Origin: a virus
DNA: 64,000 nt
IMG/VR virus record: IMGVR_UViG_3300045988_058566
Location: 122,600 to 186,599 of that record
Reading direction: 5' to 3' (one strand)
Below, piece after piece: positions 51,976-55,709 of this stretch (within the stretch, counting starts at the first letter, position 1; every line of letters starts with the position of its first letter). The translations under genes and the position numbers were made by a program. The notes beneath the pieces are model-generated. The model had not been told where the DNA came from and made no database searches. It saw only the letters and a list, made by a program, of their open reading frames with translations.

Positions 51976-52004
51976 CTACAATGGTTTGTGATAAATAGTT
52001 GTAG
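51976..52004 (+). repeat. conserved-loop hairpin, copy a
   Basis: Stem ctacaa/ttgtag, loop tggtttgtgataaatag. Confidence 0.7.
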
Positions 52005-52584
52005 GTTTCTTCAAAGATAAGTTTAGTGGATAACTAGAGTATTACTTAGGATGTACTATTTAATATATCTAGCACTCAAAGTCCACTAAACTTTCTTACT
52101 TAAATTGATATTTATGTTAGTTATATTGACACTCTCCTCCCAGAGGAAGTATGGGGCACTATCTGTCTAATCTATCAGCTGTAAAAGGTGATTAGAAGAG
52201 ATGTTTAGTTTCAAAATATTGCGCAAGCTTACTTAGGTAAGATTAATATGAAATAACTGTTAGTTAAGATAGCTAATTGATTAACAGCCTGTAATCAATA
52301 TAACCCTTTAAATATAGTGATAGAAACAGAGGTTCGAATCCTCTAATTATTTATAGTTAAGATAGCTAATTAATTATAAAGATTTCGTCCAAACTGGGAA
52401 GTAACAGGAGAAAAATGATTCTCTTAGTGCCTCACGTATGTAGAGTTTCTACAATCACCAGCCATGATGTGAGAAGACGCTATCACTTTAATTTGAATTC
52501 ATTTTATAATCATATTTTGTTAGTGTGTTATGCCTATCTGGGCAAAGTTCTTACCACTATTCTACTTATAGAAATGTGGGCTAT

Positions 52585-52657
52585 GGAGATATAGCTTAGA
52601 AGGTCAGAGCGCGGGACTGAAAATCCCGAGATTGTGGTTCGATTCCACGTATCTCCA
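52585..52657 (+). tRNA. tRNA-Phe (GAA)
   Basis: ggagata ta gctt..gagc g cggga CT-GAA-AA tcccg ... tgtgg ttcgatt ccacg tatctcc a. Confidence 0.9.
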
Positions 52658-52661
52658 CTAT

Positions 52662-52751
52662 ATACGGATGCCTGAGTGGTCGAAAGGATAGGTCTCCAAA
52701 ACCTATAGAGACGAAAGTTGAACAACGTGGGTTCGAATCCTACTCCGTGTG
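52662..52751 (+). tRNA. class II (long variable arm) tRNA with anticodon CCA, Ser-like body
   Basis: atacgga tg cct gagtggtcgaa agg a taggt CT-CCA-AA accta [21-nt variable region] gtggg ttcgaat cctac tccgtgt g. The D-loop is identical to that of the phage tRNA-Ser(GCT); discriminator G. Confidence 0.7.
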
Positions 52752-52768
52752 CAAATTAATTATAATTA

Positions 52769-52854
52769 GTTCCCTTAGCTCAGTTGGTTCCGCAAGGCTA
52801 GAGAGCATCGGACTTTTAATCCGAGGGTCATGGGTTCGAACCCCATAGGGAACA
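52769..52854 (+). tRNA. tRNA-Lys (TTT) with a 21-nt D-loop
   Basis: gttccct ta gctc [agttggttccgcaaggctaga] gagc a tcgga CT-TTT-AA tccga gggtc atggg ttcgaac cccat agggaac a; otherwise canonical. Confidence 0.75.
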
Positions 52855-52889
52855 CCTCATGTTATTCAAAGGTTAAAGAAACATTATAA

Positions 52890-52918
52890 CTCTACTGGTT
52901 TGTGATAAATAGGTAGAG
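52890..52918 (+). repeat. conserved-loop hairpin, copy b (ends 4 nt before tRNA-Asn)
   Basis: Stem ctctac/gtagag, loop tggtttgtgataaatag. Confidence 0.7.
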
Positions 52919-52922
52919 ATTT

Positions 52923-52997
52923 GTACCCTTAGTTCAGTTGGTCTAGAACGCAAAACTGTTAATTTTGATGTCGCAGGTTCGAATCCTGCAGGGTGCG
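52923..52997 (+). tRNA. tRNA-Asn (GTT)
   Basis: gtaccct ta gttc agttggtcta gaac g caaaa CT-GTT-AA ttttg atgtc gcagg ttcgaat cctgc agggtgc g. Confidence 0.9.
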
Positions 52998-53030
52998 CAA
53001 ATATTATTATTTTTAAATTTATTAATTTTG

Positions 53031-53060
53031 AGATTCTTGGTCTGTGAAGATAGAGAATCT
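53031..53060 (+). repeat. conserved-loop hairpin, copy c (ends 4 nt before tRNA-Glu)
   Basis: Stem agattct/agaatct, loop tggtctgtgaagatag. Confidence 0.7.
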
Positions 53061-53064
53061 ACTT

Positions 53065-53137
53065 GGCACTATCGTCTACCTGGTTAGGACGCCACTCTTT
53101 CAAGGTGGAAAAACGAGTCTGAGTCTCGTTAGTGCTG
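53065..53137 (+). tRNA. tRNA-Glu (TTC)
   Basis: ggcacta tc gtc tacctggttag gac g ccact CT-TTC-AA ggtgg aaaa acgag tctgagt ctcgt tagtgct g. Confidence 0.85.
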
Positions 53138-53222
53138 CTCATTCATAAAAATTGTATAATTAAAGTTATTTTAAGGTTATTCATAATCAGCGGATTATGT
53201 AAAATCGTTAAAGAGTTGGAAA

Positions 53223-53250
53223 GGCTTCTGGTCTGTGAAGATAGGAAGTC
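53223..53250 (+). repeat. conserved-loop hairpin, copy d (ends 5 nt before tRNA-His)
   Basis: Stem ggcttc/gaagtc, loop tggtctgtgaagatag. Confidence 0.7.
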
Positions 53251-53255
53251 ATTAT

Positions 53256-53328
53256 GGTCCGTCTAGTGTAACTGGTAACACGGTAGTTTGTGAGACTACA
53301 ATACAGGGTTCGAATCCCTAGCGTGACC
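53256..53328 (+). tRNA. tRNA-His (GTG) with G-1:C73 but three acceptor-stem mismatches
   Basis: g gtccgtc ta gtgt aactggta acac g gtagt TT-GTG-AG actac ... aggg ttcgaat ccct a gcgtgac c; positions 4-6 (cgt) face cgt. Confidence 0.6.
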
Positions 53329-53333
53329 CTATT

Positions 53334-53824: not shown

Positions 53825-53836
53825 TAACACATTAAT
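53825..53836 (+). promoter_or_regulatory. TAACACATTAAT motif
   Basis: 5 nt before ATG 53842. Confidence 0.45.
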
Positions 53837-53841
53837 AGATT

Positions 53842-54231
53842 ATGAATAGACAAGAACATTTTATTAAAAAGGCTAATTTATTGGCACAAATAGATAGTGC
53901 TGAGAAGTTAGGTTGCAAGAATGTACTTAAATGTGCACGAGCAGAGTTAGCTAAATTGGAGAAGAAATTTTGGGATGAACATTTTTCTAATCCATTATTT
54001 AGTTATATGGTAACTAGAGAAGAGACAGATAAACTCATAGAAGATGAGGTAAATCCTACTTTTCAGATACGTGTAACTTTTAAGAGCGGTGAAGTATATG
54101 ACTTAATGTTTTATCACGAAATTGCTCCAGGTGTTAAACATTCTGCCATTGAAAAATGGGCAGTAAAAGGATTGGCTAAGACTATTCATCACCCTGAGAA
54201 TATCGTGAGTGCTCATTTTATTATGGGTTAA
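53842..54231 (+). CDS. hypothetical early protein
   Basis: Intact 129-aa ORF preceded by TAACACATTAAT. Confidence 0.55.
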   Translation: MNRQEHFIKKANLLAQIDSAEKLGCKNVLKCARAELAKLEKKFWDEHFSNPLFSYMVTREETDKLIEDEVNPTFQIRVTFKSGEVYDLMFYHEIAPGVKHSAIEKWAVKGLAKTIHHPENIVSAHFIMG

Positions 54232-54243
54232 CTAAATAGGCAT

Positions 54244-54423
54244 ATGAATAGACAAGAGTATAATTTGAAGATTCTTGATATAATTAGGGCAAAGGCTCAA
54301 GAATATCCTGATATGAGATTTCATCAATTACTATGGGCATTTGGTGCAACTATTGAAGGAGAGCAATTTTATGAAGAATCTGAAGTGACATTTAATAGAC
54401 TTTTAGAAACATTACATAAATAA
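54244..54423 (+). CDS. small hypothetical protein (59 aa)
   Basis: Hand-read MNRQEYNLKILDIIRAKAQEYPDMRFHQLLWAFG...; TAATG overlap with the next gene. Shares the MNRQE start with the preceding gene. Confidence 0.45.
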   Translation: MNRQEYNLKILDIIRAKAQEYPDMRFHQLLWAFGATIEGEQFYEESEVTFNRLLETLHK

Positions 54424-54782
54424 TGGAGATAAAGACAATACAGATTGATACTGACACATTTCTTGTATTTAAAGGTATTGAGTACAGACAAATAAATATA
54501 GAAGATATAGTTAGTTTAGAGGCACTGAATAAATATGTCCTAATAGTAACTAAAGATTGCAGGAAATTTGTTATTGGTTGCTCTTTAACTGCTATCCTTA
54601 AGAAATTGTGTATAGAATATATAATAGTAACTAAAGGTTTCTTAATTAATAAAAAGTATTTACTTGAATTAACTAAAGAAGTGAGCAATAAGGATAAGTA
54701 TAATTTAGTACTCAATGATTCTGAGCATACTACTAAAGAAGTATCCTCATATATTGCAAAGAATATTTTAGAACAATTATAA
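54423..54782 (+). CDS. hypothetical early protein
   Basis: Intact 119-aa ORF. Confidence 0.5.
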   Translation: MEIKTIQIDTDTFLVFKGIEYRQINIEDIVSLEALNKYVLIVTKDCRKFVIGCSLTAILKKLCIEYIIVTKGFLINKKYLLELTKEVSNKDKYNLVLNDSEHTTKEVSSYIAKNILEQL

Positions 54783-54936
54783 TATTGAACTGATTTATTT
54801 AAATGGTTATACAATAGAGACTACATGTTGGTTTTTACCAAAATATTGTTGGCAACTAGCAGATAATTAGTTGCTCCTTTTTGTCTAAAGGTTGGCAGTA
54901 TATTCCACCAGACGTTAAAGACTAAAACTGCCAAAT

Positions 54937-55020
54937 GGCTCAGTATCCGAATTGGTATAGGAGATGGTCTTAAACACCATTGGACATTTGTCCGTACGGG
55001 TTCGAGTCCCGTCTGAGCTA
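54937..55020 (+). tRNA. tRNA-Leu (TAA)
   Basis: ggctcag ta tcc gaattggtata gga g atggt CT-TAA-AC accat t-ggac-attt-gtcc-gt acggg ttcgagt cccgt ctgagct a. Confidence 0.9.
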
Positions 55021-55105
55021 GAATAGCAAATGAGAAACCTCCACGTGGTGCTATTTGGGTAATGCTAATTCTCATAAAATTAATATAGTCCAGATTATAA
55101 GCTAA

Positions 55106-55210
55106 TTAAATATGGCGGAATTGGTATACGGCGGTAGATTGACGGAAGCGCCTCTAAAGTCGTCATTAAATATTTCTTGAGGATTAAGGGTTCGAATCCC
55201 TTTATTTAAG
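55106..55210 (+). tRNA. aberrant 105-nt tRNA-like gene carrying a CTCTAAA heptamer in an oversized anticodon loop
   Basis: Acceptor ttaaata/tatttaa; Leu-type D-loop gaattggtata; T-arm aaggg ttcgaat ccctt. The anticodon stem tgacg/cgtca encloses a 16-nt loop gaagcgcCTCTAAAgt. Confidence 0.35.
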
Positions 55211-55288
55211 TTAGCTTGTCTGAACTACTAGATTACGACTAAATGGTTATTTAAATATTTAATGAGTATTTTAAACTCATATTTGAGC

Positions 55289-55321
55289 CTAATTTATTAG
55301 TTTGTGAAAATTGATAATTAG
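55289..55321 (+). repeat. conserved-loop hairpin, copy f (divergent)
   Basis: Stem ctaatt/aattag; loop contains ttagtttgtgaaaattga. Confidence 0.5.
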
Positions 55322-55364
55322 TTATTGTTTTCTCTGTTAGAAGACAGTTTGAATCAAAAATAGA

Positions 55365-55392
55365 CTCATATTGCTTGTGAAAGTAGTGTGAG
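55365..55392 (+). repeat. conserved-loop hairpin, copy g
   Basis: Stem ctcata/tgtgag, loop ttgcttgtgaaagtag. Confidence 0.6.
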
Positions 55393-55541
55393 CTTTAAAT
55401 AAGGCTATATAGCAATACTAGTATAAAAGCAGGTCCAGATGCTCAATCCCTGGAATAGGCTGTCTGACTGAATAGTATGGCAGTATGTGGTGGCACATAA
55501 TCAACTAACTAGGTTTATGTATTTAGTAAGCGTAAATACTT

Positions 55542-55558
55542 CTACGTGTGATTCGTAG
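55542..55558 (+). repeat. short variant hairpin, copy h (ends 2 nt before the tRNA)
   Basis: Stem ctacg/cgtag, loop tgtgatt. Confidence 0.45.
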
Positions 55559-55560
55559 TG

Positions 55561-55632
55561 GAATGCGTAGCTCAATTGGATAGAGCACCAGATATAATCT
55601 GGAGGTTGGCAGTTCGAGTCTGTCCGCATTTA
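55561..55632 (+). tRNA. tRNA-Ile(TAT)-like with an anticodon arm 2 nt too short
   Basis: gaatgcg ta gctc aattggata gagc a ccaga-tataa-tctgg aggtt ggcag ttcgagt ctgtc cgcattt a. The loop is only 5 nt, or 7 nt (atataat) on a 4-bp stem. Confidence 0.5.
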
Positions 55633-55679
55633 CTTTATTTCATTTTTAGGGTATAGTACCTAATTTTTTTCTAAGTTTC

Positions 55680-55709
55680 AGCAACTTGGTTTGTGAAGAT
55701 AAAGTTGTT
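55680..55709 (+). repeat. conserved-loop hairpin, copy i
   Basis: Stem agcaact/agttgtt, loop tggtttgtgaagataa. Confidence 0.65.

Follow-up and report, generated by a model that had tools for sequence, protein, structure and literature searches.

Eight hairpins lying between the tRNA genes of a crAss-like phage, all on the + strand within positions 51975-55709 of the 64,000-nt stretch analysed here (the window), form a real, structured and uncatalogued RNA family. The element is 12-14 bp long and consists of a variable lower stem of 6-9 bp, a U.G pair, a 1x1 G/A mismatch, an invariant G.U pair, a 3-bp upper stem and a GUGA tetraloop, which is replaced by GUGAU in copies a and b. The preliminary description had taken the apical part for a conserved 16-17-nt loop, but folding with ViennaRNA showed that these nucleotides form the U.G pair, the mismatch, the G.U pair and the 3-bp stem, leaving only GUGA as the loop. 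The inner 3-bp stem itself covaries among the window copies (TCT/AGA, TTT/AAA, TTC/GAA, CTT/AAG). No Rfam 15 family overlapped the hairpins, either at gathering thresholds or at E ≤ 10, in keeping with the earlier failure to recognise the motif.

Family membership was evaluated with a covariance model whose training alignment included window copies a, b, c, d, e, g and i. These seven scored 32.6-43.2 bits and copy f, which was left out of training, scored 19.9 bits (E = 0.014), while the best non-member match across the 64 kb reached 11.5 bits. A strict definition of the structure (GNRA loop, 3 bp, G.U, a 1x1 position and at least six further pairs) was found seven times on the + strand and not at all on the - strand, whereas 200 dinucleotide-preserving shuffles of the window yielded 0.075 on average and never more than 1. 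Nine copies had originally been listed, all at positions that agreed with the sequence when it was read again, and eight of them belong to the family. The ninth, copy h (55542..55558, +), was rejected: it is a generic hairpin, a 5-bp stem closed by 7 unpaired nt, that stops 2 nt short of the tRNA at 55561-55633, and it has no match to the model even at E ≤ 10 and an unremarkable fold (z = -2.0; 10 of 200 shuffles folded equally well).

Hairpin a (51975..52005, +; apex TGGTTTGTGATAAATAG with the GUGAU pentaloop; -8.0 kcal/mol, z = -3.3; 34.6 bits) lies 81 nt past tRNA-Arg(UCU) and 14 nt ahead of a long hairpin RNA, and has an ortholog in contig L018. The next four copies are interleaved with the genes for tRNA-Asn, Glu, His, Ser and Gln (52923..53557, +), identified by ARAGORN and by Rfam matches at 52923-52997, 53065-53137, 53257-53328, 53334-53421 and 53486-53556. 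Hairpin b (52890..52918, +; -9.7 kcal/mol; 36.8 bits) is 33 nt past the tRNA at 52769-52856 and 4 nt ahead of tRNA-Asn (52923-52998); in its L018 ortholog U1 has become C1, giving a C-G pair. Hairpin c (53031..53060, +; apex TGGTCTGTGAAGATAG; -12.8 kcal/mol; 43.2 bits) follows tRNA-Asn by 32 nt, precedes tRNA-Glu(UUC) (53065-53137) by 4 nt and, unlike the spacer before it, is conserved as well as the tRNAs in a four-genome alignment. Hairpin d (53223..53250, +; -12.9 kcal/mol; 42.7 bits) is 85 nt past tRNA-Glu and 6 nt ahead of tRNA-His (53257-53328), which is followed after 5 nt by tRNA-Ser; in L018 and L001 tRNA-Ser comes directly after hairpin d, indicating that tRNA-His is an insertion or deletion beside it. 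Hairpin e (53456..53483, +; apex TGGTTCGTGAGAATAG; -6.6 kcal/mol, z = -4.0; 38.1 bits) lies 33 nt past tRNA-Ser and 2 nt ahead of tRNA-Gln (53486-53557), and together with its 33-nt spacer is shared by the window and L018 and missing from L001 and L052. Farther along, the divergent hairpin f (55289..55321, +; apex TAGTTTGTGAAAATTG; model match 55292-55319; -7.9 kcal/mol, z = -4.7) has a longer AU stem followed by a T-rich tail, hairpin g (55365..55392, +; apex TTGCTTGTGAAAGTAG; -14.5 kcal/mol, z = -5.2; 35.6 bits) has a U-A pair in place of the G/A mismatch, and hairpin i (55680..55709, +; apex TGGTTTGTGAAGATAA; -8.9 kcal/mol; 32.6 bits) is 46 nt past the tRNA at 55561-55633 and 141 nt ahead of tRNA-Met.

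The family is large, spanning hundreds of gut-phage contigs. Scans of IMG/VR for three exact apexes, each present in at least 120 loci, found flanking complementary stems of many sequences in 76-96% of the matches listed (at least 5 bp in 111/123, 118/131 and 98/129), the last figures being those of the hairpin g apex, which occurs in at least 129 places. In cellular genomes, by contrast, only 35 of 119 apex matches had flanking stems of at least 5 bp; 77 of the other 84 had a stem of 0-2 bp and none exceeded 4 bp. Phage crAss001 carries a single copy (MH675552:1878-1909), 5 nt before tRNA-Glu, and the family is also found in a prophage-like region of a Bacteroides chromosome, inside an 8-kb locus with SSB, Erf-like and RecE-like genes.

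The observation that the stems vary and stay complementary held, and far beyond the window. Among 102 distinct members, 98.1% of cells were paired, against 62.3% after shuffling and 37-47% with slid partners, and 10 of the 11 pairs had changes on both sides. The G.U pair was kept in 101 of 102 members, whereas the inner pairs covaried (UA 92/CG 10; CG 65/UA 28; UA 79/CG 19), and the pentaloop variants GUGAU and GUGAC were tolerated. In 101 of 102 members folding favoured the sense strand (on average -13.5 kcal/mol, against -7.3 kcal/mol for the opposite strand). On the template strand the two invariant wobbles, G.U and U.G, would turn into A/C mismatches. The hairpins are intergenic and lie on the same strand as about 95% of the flanking genes. 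These results indicated a genuine hairpin structure that functions at the level of RNA or the sense strand.

This strand asymmetry, with wobble pairs tolerated on the sense strand only, bears directly on whether the hairpin could be a DNA element, either a promoter for a phage RNA polymerase or a PeSL-like recombination cassette that shuffles tRNAs. In favour of such an element are the preference of the crAss-like virion RNA polymerase for single-stranded templates and the fact that two of the synteny differences within 52.85-53.49 kb fall right at hairpins d and e, but we consider either role very improbable. The distance from the apex to the tRNA 5' end varies from about 8 to 19 nt, so the apex cannot fix a start site, and the family is also present in the Bacteroides chromosomal prophage-like region. 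The N4-like hairpin promoter raised in the preliminary description is therefore not supported: N4 promoters show the opposite pattern of conservation to the variable stem and conserved apex found here, and for early transcription by the crAss-like virion RNA polymerase no shared upstream motif was found (bioRxiv 10.1101/2020.03.07.982082). PeSLs of T4-type phages likewise differ from the gut-phage hairpin, conserving stem and promoter and not the apex (PMC4122927).

The reading that best accommodates the genomic context, and to which we give an even chance of being right, is that the hairpin is the 3'-terminal stem-loop that caps the RNA upstream, an element of unit boundaries. In the window, the placement agrees with the proposal that each hairpin heads a tRNA unit: hairpins b to e stand 2-6 nt ahead of whichever tRNA opens a group, and a tRNA adjoining another tRNA has none. 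Across the family, this context is in the minority. Among 343 distinct copies, 154 were followed at once by a U-tract, 92 by a tRNA-like sequence, 4 by a hatchet-like and 5 by a hammerhead-like element and 88 by something else. With U-tracts commoner than tRNA-like sequences, and with some copies directly adjoining hatchets, the hairpin is better described as the tail of what lies upstream than as the head of what lies downstream. A stop codon often lies about 10-35 nt upstream; of the 144 U-tract cases, 69 had an ORF end no more than 100 nt upstream (median distance past the stop, 31 nt), and the same held for 3/3 hatchet-like and 3/4 hammerhead-like cases. In L375, an ORF stop TAA is followed after 9 nt by the hairpin (932-963, -) and after 0 nt by a Hatchet match (789-931, -; 87 bits), and L245 has a hairpin at 2118-2145 (-) and a Hatchet at 1994-2119 (-). 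Since the hatchet cuts at its own 5' end, the sole product boundary there would be just past the hairpin. The order ORF, hairpin, tRNA also occurs (e.g., L034 9780-9809), with tRNAs starting 2-11 nt past the hairpin family-wide and most commonly after 4 nt.

Under this 3'-end reading, the 3' end would be made a few nucleotides past the hairpin by whichever device comes next: a U-tract would bring about intrinsic termination, the commonest case among other phages, an adjoining tRNA would bring RNase P cleavage at its 5' end, as proposed for window copies b to e, which would thereby keep 3' tails of 2-6 nt, and an adjoining hatchet would cleave itself, with the hammerhead as a possible further device. 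A hairpin that precedes presumed points of cleavage or termination in hundreds of contigs is more plausibly a 3' cap than a promoter. Several observations count against this reading. The upstream RNAs in the window are not mRNAs but tRNAs with 32-85-nt trailers, where capping the 3' end would impede trimming by exonucleases unless an endonuclease cut first; six copies in divergent intergenic regions (L073 and L014 were inspected) have no same-strand gene upstream; and in type I hammerhead cases such as L312 the cut falls about 58 nt past the hairpin, with stems traced by eye.

It could instead be a purely transcriptional signal, namely an intrinsic terminator in most phages and, in the window, a leaky terminator or pause between tRNAs that tunes dosage, perhaps modulated by an apex-bound factor through attenuation or antitermination. 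Where no tRNA came next, the first 6 nt downstream were 53-71% T, a share that had dropped to about 30% at position +11, and this speaks for the 3'-end reading as well. At least four T stood among these 6 nt in 62 of 108 such copies; linkers preceding tRNAs were also about 50% T, and the usual placement past stop codons and the tandem units of L017, where four hairpins each with a T-run and nothing else lie within 350 nt, fit a terminator as well. However, the window copies have tails of AUUUG, ACUUG, AUUAUG and AU, and none was terminator-like in a simple scan, which counts against the 3'-end reading too, while the canonical terminators of the array (54851-54875 and 55952-55986) are outside the family. 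The 2-6 nt between such a terminator and the tRNA leave no space for a promoter, so termination could do no more than lower that tRNA's expression, and hatchet-adjoining copies require no termination, making this account rather improbable.

We regard as unlikely, too, that the hairpin serves the downstream RNA as a leader or insulator placed at a unit's 5' end or close to it, blocking the AU-rich spacer from invading the fold of a tRNA, ribozyme or ribosome-binding region, and shielding the 5' end until it is cut off by RNase P. The tight gap to structured RNAs (0-11 nt for tRNAs, hatchets and hammerheads) is consistent with such a role. Unrelated hairpins ended 3-6 nt before 73 of 160 unit-heading tRNAs (46%, versus 27% in shuffles and 33% at a 15-nt offset), with a similar enrichment in crAss001 spacers, although those of the window were individually not significant. 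The spacer and hairpin e act as a single insertion/deletion unit, and the divergent copies in L073 and L014 fit a leader. In Bacteroides prophage-type arrays (L003, L013, L190, L262, L276, L308), a conserved T/G-rich motif stops 5-7 nt short of the hairpin; parts of it look like the Bacteroides -7 box TAnnTTTG, and as a promoter it would place the transcription start at the hairpin's first base, which favours a leader over the 3'-end reading. Yet a leader leaves the largest class unexplained, the copies with a U-tract alone, many of them 10-35 nt past a stop codon. Eight copies that lie where converging genes end, and that nothing follows on their strand, also count against it; nor does an insulator require an invariant apex.

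End protection alone does not explain that apex either. The G.U and GUGA on a free lower stem resemble a sequence-specifically recognised tip, as in lambda boxB, and tolerance of pentaloop variants fits this likeness. That the hairpin is solely a protein-docking site for nut-like processive antitermination, or an abundant decoy released from the array to titrate a host RNA-binding protein or nuclease, is improbable, even with many copies per genome within highly expressed arrays and the bare units of L017: k-mer analysis found no conserved boxA-like partner nearby, and tblastn of window ORFs against 121 loci found no protein common next to the hairpins. Docking is compatible with the 3'-terminal stem-loop, and the earlier suggestions of a stabilising element and a protein-binding site are both viable.

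The invariant apex implies a binding partner. The sequences themselves establish the fold, its covariation and strand specificity, the size of the family and the contexts on either side. From these we infer that cleavage or termination takes place just past the hairpin, that the 3' hairpin would stabilise the upstream RNA by shielding it from 3'-to-5' exonucleases, and that the apex may dock a putative trans-acting factor.

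Reading the sequence confirmed all nine hairpins (copies a-i) that a preliminary description had placed on the + strand of the window, in its tRNA array between 51976 and 55709. The claim that they form one family held for copies a, b, c, d, e, f, g and i and was rejected for copy h (55542-55558), which was undetected by covariance model R1 and folded no better than many shuffles. This model, trained on copies from the window (seven) and from other phages (33), recovered the family members when searched against the window, with 32.6-43.2 bits for copies a, b, c, d, e, g and i (all seven in the training set) and 19.9 bits (E = 0.014) for copy f, which was outside the training set; no score above 11.5 bits was obtained in the other sequence of the 64-kb window. 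The + strand contained seven occurrences of the strict structure and the - strand none, compared with 0.075 in window shuffles, indicating that the hairpin family is real and confined to 3.7 kb of one window strand.

The element first described as a conserved 16-17-nt loop is not a loop, as it was base-paired in the fold of every copy. From base to tip, the hairpin consists of a 6-9-bp lower stem, a U.G pair, a 1x1 G/A mismatch, a G.U pair, a 3-bp upper stem and a GUGA tetraloop, which is replaced by a GUGAU pentaloop in copies a and b and by GUGAU or GUGAC pentaloops in some other family members. Window copies show covariation in the upper stem (TCT/AGA, TTT/AAA, TTC/GAA and CTT/AAG). Standard pairs occupied 98.1% of cells in 102 distinct family members, compared with 62.3% after shuffling and 37-47% with slid partners, and both-sided changes were found in 10 of 11 pairs; these members were aligned to the covariance model, so that the pair counts are biased towards the structure, and the raw exact-apex matches and the strand asymmetry serve as checks independent of that alignment. 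The three upper-stem pairs were UA 92 and CG 10; CG 65, UA 28, UG 6 and AU 3; and UA 79 and CG 19, respectively, the closing pair was UG 78, CG 16, AU 3 and UA 2, and the G.U wobble was present in 101 of the 102. Because the sense strand folded better in 101 of 102 members (mean -13.5 versus -7.3 kcal/mol for the antisense strand) and lower-stem wobble pairs occurred in the sense orientation only, the element acts as RNA, or at least on the sense strand only. A ruler model was rejected, since lower-stem length and linker length were uncompensated by inspection and the loop-to-cut distance is thus not fixed.

These features did not support the earlier suggestion of hairpin promoters like those of phage N4, which are template-strand DNA hairpins with conserved stems of 5-7 bp, 3-nt loops and a fixed distance from +1. 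The family resembles them in that its small hairpins precede transcribed units and the phage carries a virion RNA polymerase, whereas its stems vary, its apex is fixed, its fold forms on the sense strand only and its distance is variable. Measured from the apex to the tRNA 5' end, which is only a proxy for the transcription start, that distance ranged over ~8-19 nt, a spread of more than 10 nt that argues against a fixed start at mature tRNA 5' ends. The family also occurs on a 5.26-Mb Bacteroides chromosome (locus L201), beside genes called as SSB, Erf-like annealase and RecE-like exonuclease, in a region that looks like a prophage, and in published work on the crAss-like virion RNA polymerase, early transcripts were found to share no upstream motif (bioRxiv 10.1101/2020.03.07.982082).

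The window is AT-rich (GC ~31%) and yields few long ORFs with the standard code; reading TAG as sense gave ORFs up to 2128 codons in the region 159-39344 (-), where a single structural-block ORF contains 66 in-frame TAGs and the structural genes are readable only in this way. A suppressor tRNA(CUA) at 42295-42367 (-) lies between the two gene blocks, and the + strand block, which holds the tRNA array with the hairpins (51819-55926, +), uses the standard code without recoding. Matches to terminase, portal and major-capsid PHROGs, together with a large terminase that shares 26-28% identity with those of Crassvirales phages and 42-47% with those of two unclassified human-gut phage records, indicate that the window belongs to a divergent crAss-like phage, with two IMG/VR contigs of 177-181 kb (L018 and L052) as close relatives. 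Two RAGATH-1 hammerheads, at 46600-46705 and 47637-47721 (+; 68.1 and 62.0 bits, above the Rfam gathering threshold), are intergenic within the + strand block, and neither adjoins a family hairpin. At 56921-59778 (+), five tandem paralogous ORFs of ~135-150 aa all begin with MCW and have common YHSY and ATFI(I/V)P.G motifs, with no Pfam match.

Within the array, copies b, c, d and e end 4, 4, 6 and 2 nt before the next tRNA and begin 32-85 nt from the preceding one, while copies a, g and i are followed by non-coding sequence and copy f by a T-rich tail. Among the window, L018, L052 and a further related contig, L001, the hairpins were conserved like the tRNAs, and the spacer before copy c had diverged. 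In the same comparison, tRNA-His had been inserted or deleted between hairpin d and tRNA-Ser, and a 33-nt spacer with hairpin e was either retained or missing as one block between tRNA-Ser and tRNA-Gln, which indicates that the hairpin is not tied to a particular tRNA.

The array contains several other elements. An unusual 88-nt tRNA at 52769-52856 (+) has an anticodon not assignable in ARAGORN, a 105-nt Rfam tRNA match at 55106-55210 (+; 34.6 bits) probably carries an insertion, and the tRNA at 55561-55633 (+) has the anticodon AUA. A tRNA-like segment with a T-arm at 52270-52350 (+) was uncalled, and the sequence at 53560-53660 has the appearance of an aberrant tRNA-like RNA with a T-arm, called by neither ARAGORN nor Rfam. 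The tRNA-Gln with ~290 nt downstream (53483-53844, +) is 83-84% identical to Prevotella Lak megaphages. A long imperfect hairpin at 52020-52095 (+), AAGTTTAGTGGA ... TCCACTAAACTT, begins 14 nt past hairpin a and is conserved in L018, without an Rfam match. A weak HDV-F-prausnitzii match at 55021-55075 (+; 23.4 bits, E = 0.31, below the gathering score) starts exactly at the 3' end of tRNA-Leu(UAA), the position described for theta ribozymes of recoded gut phages (PMC10879173). The array also includes a 119-aa ORF with a LytTR DNA-binding domain (54423-54782, +; Pfam E = 1.3e-6), which was the only domain found by Pfam among 17 ORFs of the 43-64-kb region. A search for a shared neighbouring protein by tblastn of all window ORFs against 121 loci recovered only the close relatives L018, L052 and L001.

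A search of other phage genomes showed that the hairpin recurs widely, with differing complementary stems. Scanning IMG/VR for three exact 16-nt apex sequences gave at least 120 loci each: at least 123 matches for the c-type apex (TGGTYTGTGAAGATAG), at least 131 for the e-type (TGGTTCGTGAGAATAG) and at least 129 for the g-type (TTGCTTGTGAAAGTAG), with five or more complementary flanking bases in 111 of the 123, 118 of the 131 and 98 of the 129 matches listed, respectively, and with dozens of different flanking stem sequences. The c-type apex had 119 matches in 596 Gb of cellular genomes, no more than the number expected by chance by our own arithmetic. Hairpin context was present in 35 of these, among them L201 and mostly in Bacteroidales assemblies; the other 84, with 0-2 flanking pairs in 77 and more than four in none, provide an internal negative control. 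The cultured phage crAss001 (MH675552) has exactly one copy (1878-1909), with tRNA-Arg 44 nt upstream and tRNA-Glu 5 nt downstream. Strong Shine-Dalgarno sequences downstream of some copies suggest that the hairpin may also occur in phages of Firmicutes.

The preliminary description had not recognised the motif, and Rfam 15 indeed holds no matching family: neither a whole-window gathering scan nor a scan of 51600-56100 at E ≤ 10 gave a match over any hairpin. Searching the literature for the apex as DNA and RNA strings returned unrelated primer matches only, and the hairpin is absent from the theta-ribozyme paper (PMC10879173), the crAss001 persistence paper, a microbiome structured-RNA catalogue and a metagenome terminator paper. 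Hairpins at transcript ends in general are ordinary; what is new is a fixed apex, not in Rfam, that is common to hundreds of otherwise unrelated stems across gut-phage lineages, and the modular pairing of this hairpin with tRNAs, hatchet ribozymes and hammerhead ribozymes.

Family hairpins are intergenic, with ~95% of flanking genes on the same strand. Over 343 distinct copies, the sequence directly downstream was a U-tract (4 or more T among the first 6 nt) in 154, tRNA-like in 92, hatchet-like in 4, hammerhead-like in 5 and other in 88, many of the last being odd tRNAs or RNAs without assignment. Among copies without a following tRNA, T made up 53-71% over the first six positions and ~30% by +11. 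On the upstream side, 69 of 144 U-tract copies had an ORF end within 100 nt, the median distance past the stop being 31 nt; such an end was also present for hatchet-like (3 of 3) and hammerhead-like copies (3 of 4). The locus L375 exemplifies this arrangement, with an ORF stop codon followed by 9 nt, the hairpin and, with 0 nt between, a Hatchet at 87 bits in Rfam. The hatchet sites, all on - strands (L375 789-963 and 4063-4250; L245 1994-2145; L404; L454), are each directly preceded by a hairpin. A family hairpin precedes four hatchets, those in L375 and L245 confirmed by Rfam and those in L404 and L454 assigned by sequence pattern only; in L245 it overlaps the first two model positions of Hatchet (Rfam). 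The hairpin in front of another hatchet confirmed by Rfam (L375 4063-4188), CTCTAC...GTAGAG, is unrelated to the family. In L025, a RAGATH-1 hammerhead (Rfam) begins 10 nt past the hairpin.

Some other RNAs lie near family hairpins, including a permuted tmRNA in L025 (6173-6408, +; 63 bits) and RAGATH-9 and RAGATH-7 in L245 (171-328 and 3716-3932, -; 142 and 160 bits). In L017 (5754-6097, -), four family hairpins, each with a T-run, stand 70-150 nt apart in a 350-nt non-coding stretch, an arrangement that may represent terminators in tandem or very small transcription units made of the hairpin alone.

Intrinsic termination is typically marked by a hairpin with a U-tract behind it, and RNase P cleaves at the tRNA 5' end. 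Every recognisable downstream class would end or cut the RNA chain just after the hairpin. For this reason we favour, with moderate confidence, the reading that the family is a 3'-terminal stem-loop of the upstream unit combined with interchangeable end-forming devices, for which we infer steps of cleavage, termination, stabilisation and binding. In each class, the upstream product would carry the conserved hairpin and a tail of a few nt at its 3' end, and for window copies b-e the following tRNAs would be the end-forming device. Since 3' stem-loops shield bacterial RNAs from 3' exonucleases, the basic function is likely to be protection of the upstream RNA. Protection does not require the invariant G.U and GUGA, which point to a specific partner of the apex, either a protein or a tertiary contact.

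The main rival, which we consider improbable, is that the hairpin is a 5' leader or insulator serving the downstream RNA. The window gives it some weight, since a capped trailer would bring no evident advantage to the upstream RNAs there, which are tRNAs, and no window copy is terminator-like. A few copies lie in divergent intergenic regions, which fits a leader and speaks against a 3' end; convergent junctions (8) and divergent ones (6) do not separate terminator from leader, and stop-to-hairpin and hairpin-to-start distances both peak at 20-30 nt. Reading an opposite-strand ATGAA just upstream as the start of a divergent ORF was rejected as a general feature (9 of 281). Unrelated hairpins ending 3-6 nt before unit-heading tRNAs, of which crAss001 has examples, are also mildly enriched in these phages (46%, against 27-33% in controls). 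Moreover, in the prophage-type tRNA arrays of one Bacteroides prophage lineage (L003 4440-4640; L190 5085-5285; L262, L273, L276 and L308; L013, - strand), each hairpin begins 5-7 nt after a conserved T/G-rich motif (GTCGTGTTTTATTTTGTGTTTG...); this motif partly resembles a -7 promoter box and may be a promoter, in which case the hairpin would be the 5' end of the primary transcript. The tRNA-like genes after these prophage-array hairpins were not typed by ARAGORN. A common promoter upstream of all copies was rejected, as none was found in the window lineage, TAnnTTTG had no positional peak overall, and TTTG stood 4-8 nt upstream in only ~17% of copies (31 of 178), mostly in that prophage lineage. 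The leader and the 3'-terminal stem-loop would in any case be compatible, because a hairpin at a boundary serves both neighbours.

Considered as a 3'-terminal stem-loop, the family shares with intrinsic terminators a stem-loop capped by a stable tetraloop that lies downstream of gene ends, co-oriented with the genes, 10-35 nt past stops, and roughly half of its copies have a U-rich tract behind them. Stem stability and a U-tract define terminators, whereas here G.U and GUGA are fixed across 102 distinct members, and the window copies lack a U-tract and are followed by tRNAs, as copies in other phages are by ribozymes. A scan of the window for stable hairpins with an immediate U-tract (at least 5 T in 8 nt) recovered no family copy, its hits including two non-family terminators, at 54851-54875 and 55952-55986. 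Metazoan histone mRNAs end in a short conserved 3' hairpin, cleaved a few nt past the stem and read by SLBP; the proposed placement of a short conserved hairpin at an RNA 3' end is a functional analogy only, without homology, and RNase P, ribozymes or termination would make the end in the family. The RNase III hairpins of T7 and SP82 are repeated and intergenic, separate the units of polycistronic phage RNA and leave behind hairpins that protect 3' ends. The family is likewise repeated and intergenic with shared sequence features, but measures only 12-14 bp, and 12-14 bp with a tetraloop is the lower limit for RNase III, which cuts within duplex stems of ~1-2 turns. In MALAT1, the tRNA-like fold of mascRNA recruits RNase P and thereby creates the 3' end of the upstream RNA, whereas real tRNAs are the candidate signal here.

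Lambda boxB, a 5-bp stem that comes with boxA once or twice per genome near promoters, is also a small hairpin with a GNRA-type loop, a pentaloop in which one extra base is tolerated, and its loop and closing pairs are read sequence-specifically. The family differs in having up to 8 copies in 3.7 kb, an internal mismatch and an invariant G.U. It has the GNRA-like loop on a short stem expected of a nut site without an adjacent boxA-like element, as k-mer enrichment around 168 hairpins gave T-rich or G-containing words only, none at a fixed distance. The PeSL cassettes of T4-type phages, in which a sigma-70-type early promoter is joined to a stem-loop with a conserved stem sequence (PMC4122927), are similarly repeated intergenic stem-loop modules adjoining insertions and deletions (PMC4122927, PMC2839356), whereas the family has a variable stem and a conserved apex and lacks a shared upstream promoter motif in the crAss-like (window) lineage. 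Theta (HDV-like) ribozymes in gut-phage tRNA arrays are RNA elements of the same kind of phage, directly adjoining tRNAs and tied to end formation, and self-cleave 3' of tRNAs (PMC10879173); the family hairpin, in contrast, lies 5' of tRNAs and has no catalytic architecture.

Several identities for the hairpin itself were rejected. A self-cleaving ribozyme (hammerhead, hatchet, HDV-like, twister or pistol) does not fit a simple hairpin over which Rfam gave no ribozyme match; ribozymes adjoin family hairpins rather than lying within them. Resemblances compared by eye were dropped because the matching positions vary among apex variants: the 5' strand of the Ro-binding helix of Y RNA (UGGUC) as a Ro ligand, for which there was also no Rfam Y RNA match; the tRNA-His anticodon loop and the TGT or colicin E5 UGU site; the T-loop GGUUCG and the UGGN CCA-binding motif; and group II intron domain 5 and GUGA with its CU:AG receptor. 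In crAss001, gp96 (L242 46870-48288) is a TROVE (Ro60-like) protein in the early operon, beside a 900-nt non-coding gap, and the idea of the hairpin as a Ro ligand gained no support.

A more specific version of the 3'-terminal stem-loop, which we put forward as a speculative and rather unlikely possibility, is a protein-read 3' cap comparable to the SLBP-bound hairpin, recognised through G.U and GUGA, common to gut phages of Bacteroidota and apparently also Bacillota, and joined to interchangeable U-tract, tRNA-RNase P, hatchet or hammerhead ends. If so, hatchets and tRNA genes after phage ORFs would gain a job in mRNA 3'-end formation. We know of no role for hatchet ribozymes, and the 3'-cap reading would supply a testable one. 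A practical use of the covariance model is to mark unit boundaries in phage genomes whose annotation is otherwise hampered by TAG recoding. The hairpin is a very widespread structured RNA motif outside Rfam, found in crAss-like and other gut phages, including the cultured crAss001, and the 3'-cap reading, if right, would bring terminator-like hairpins, tRNA arrays, hatchets and hammerheads under one transcript-end logic and imply an RNA-binding partner.
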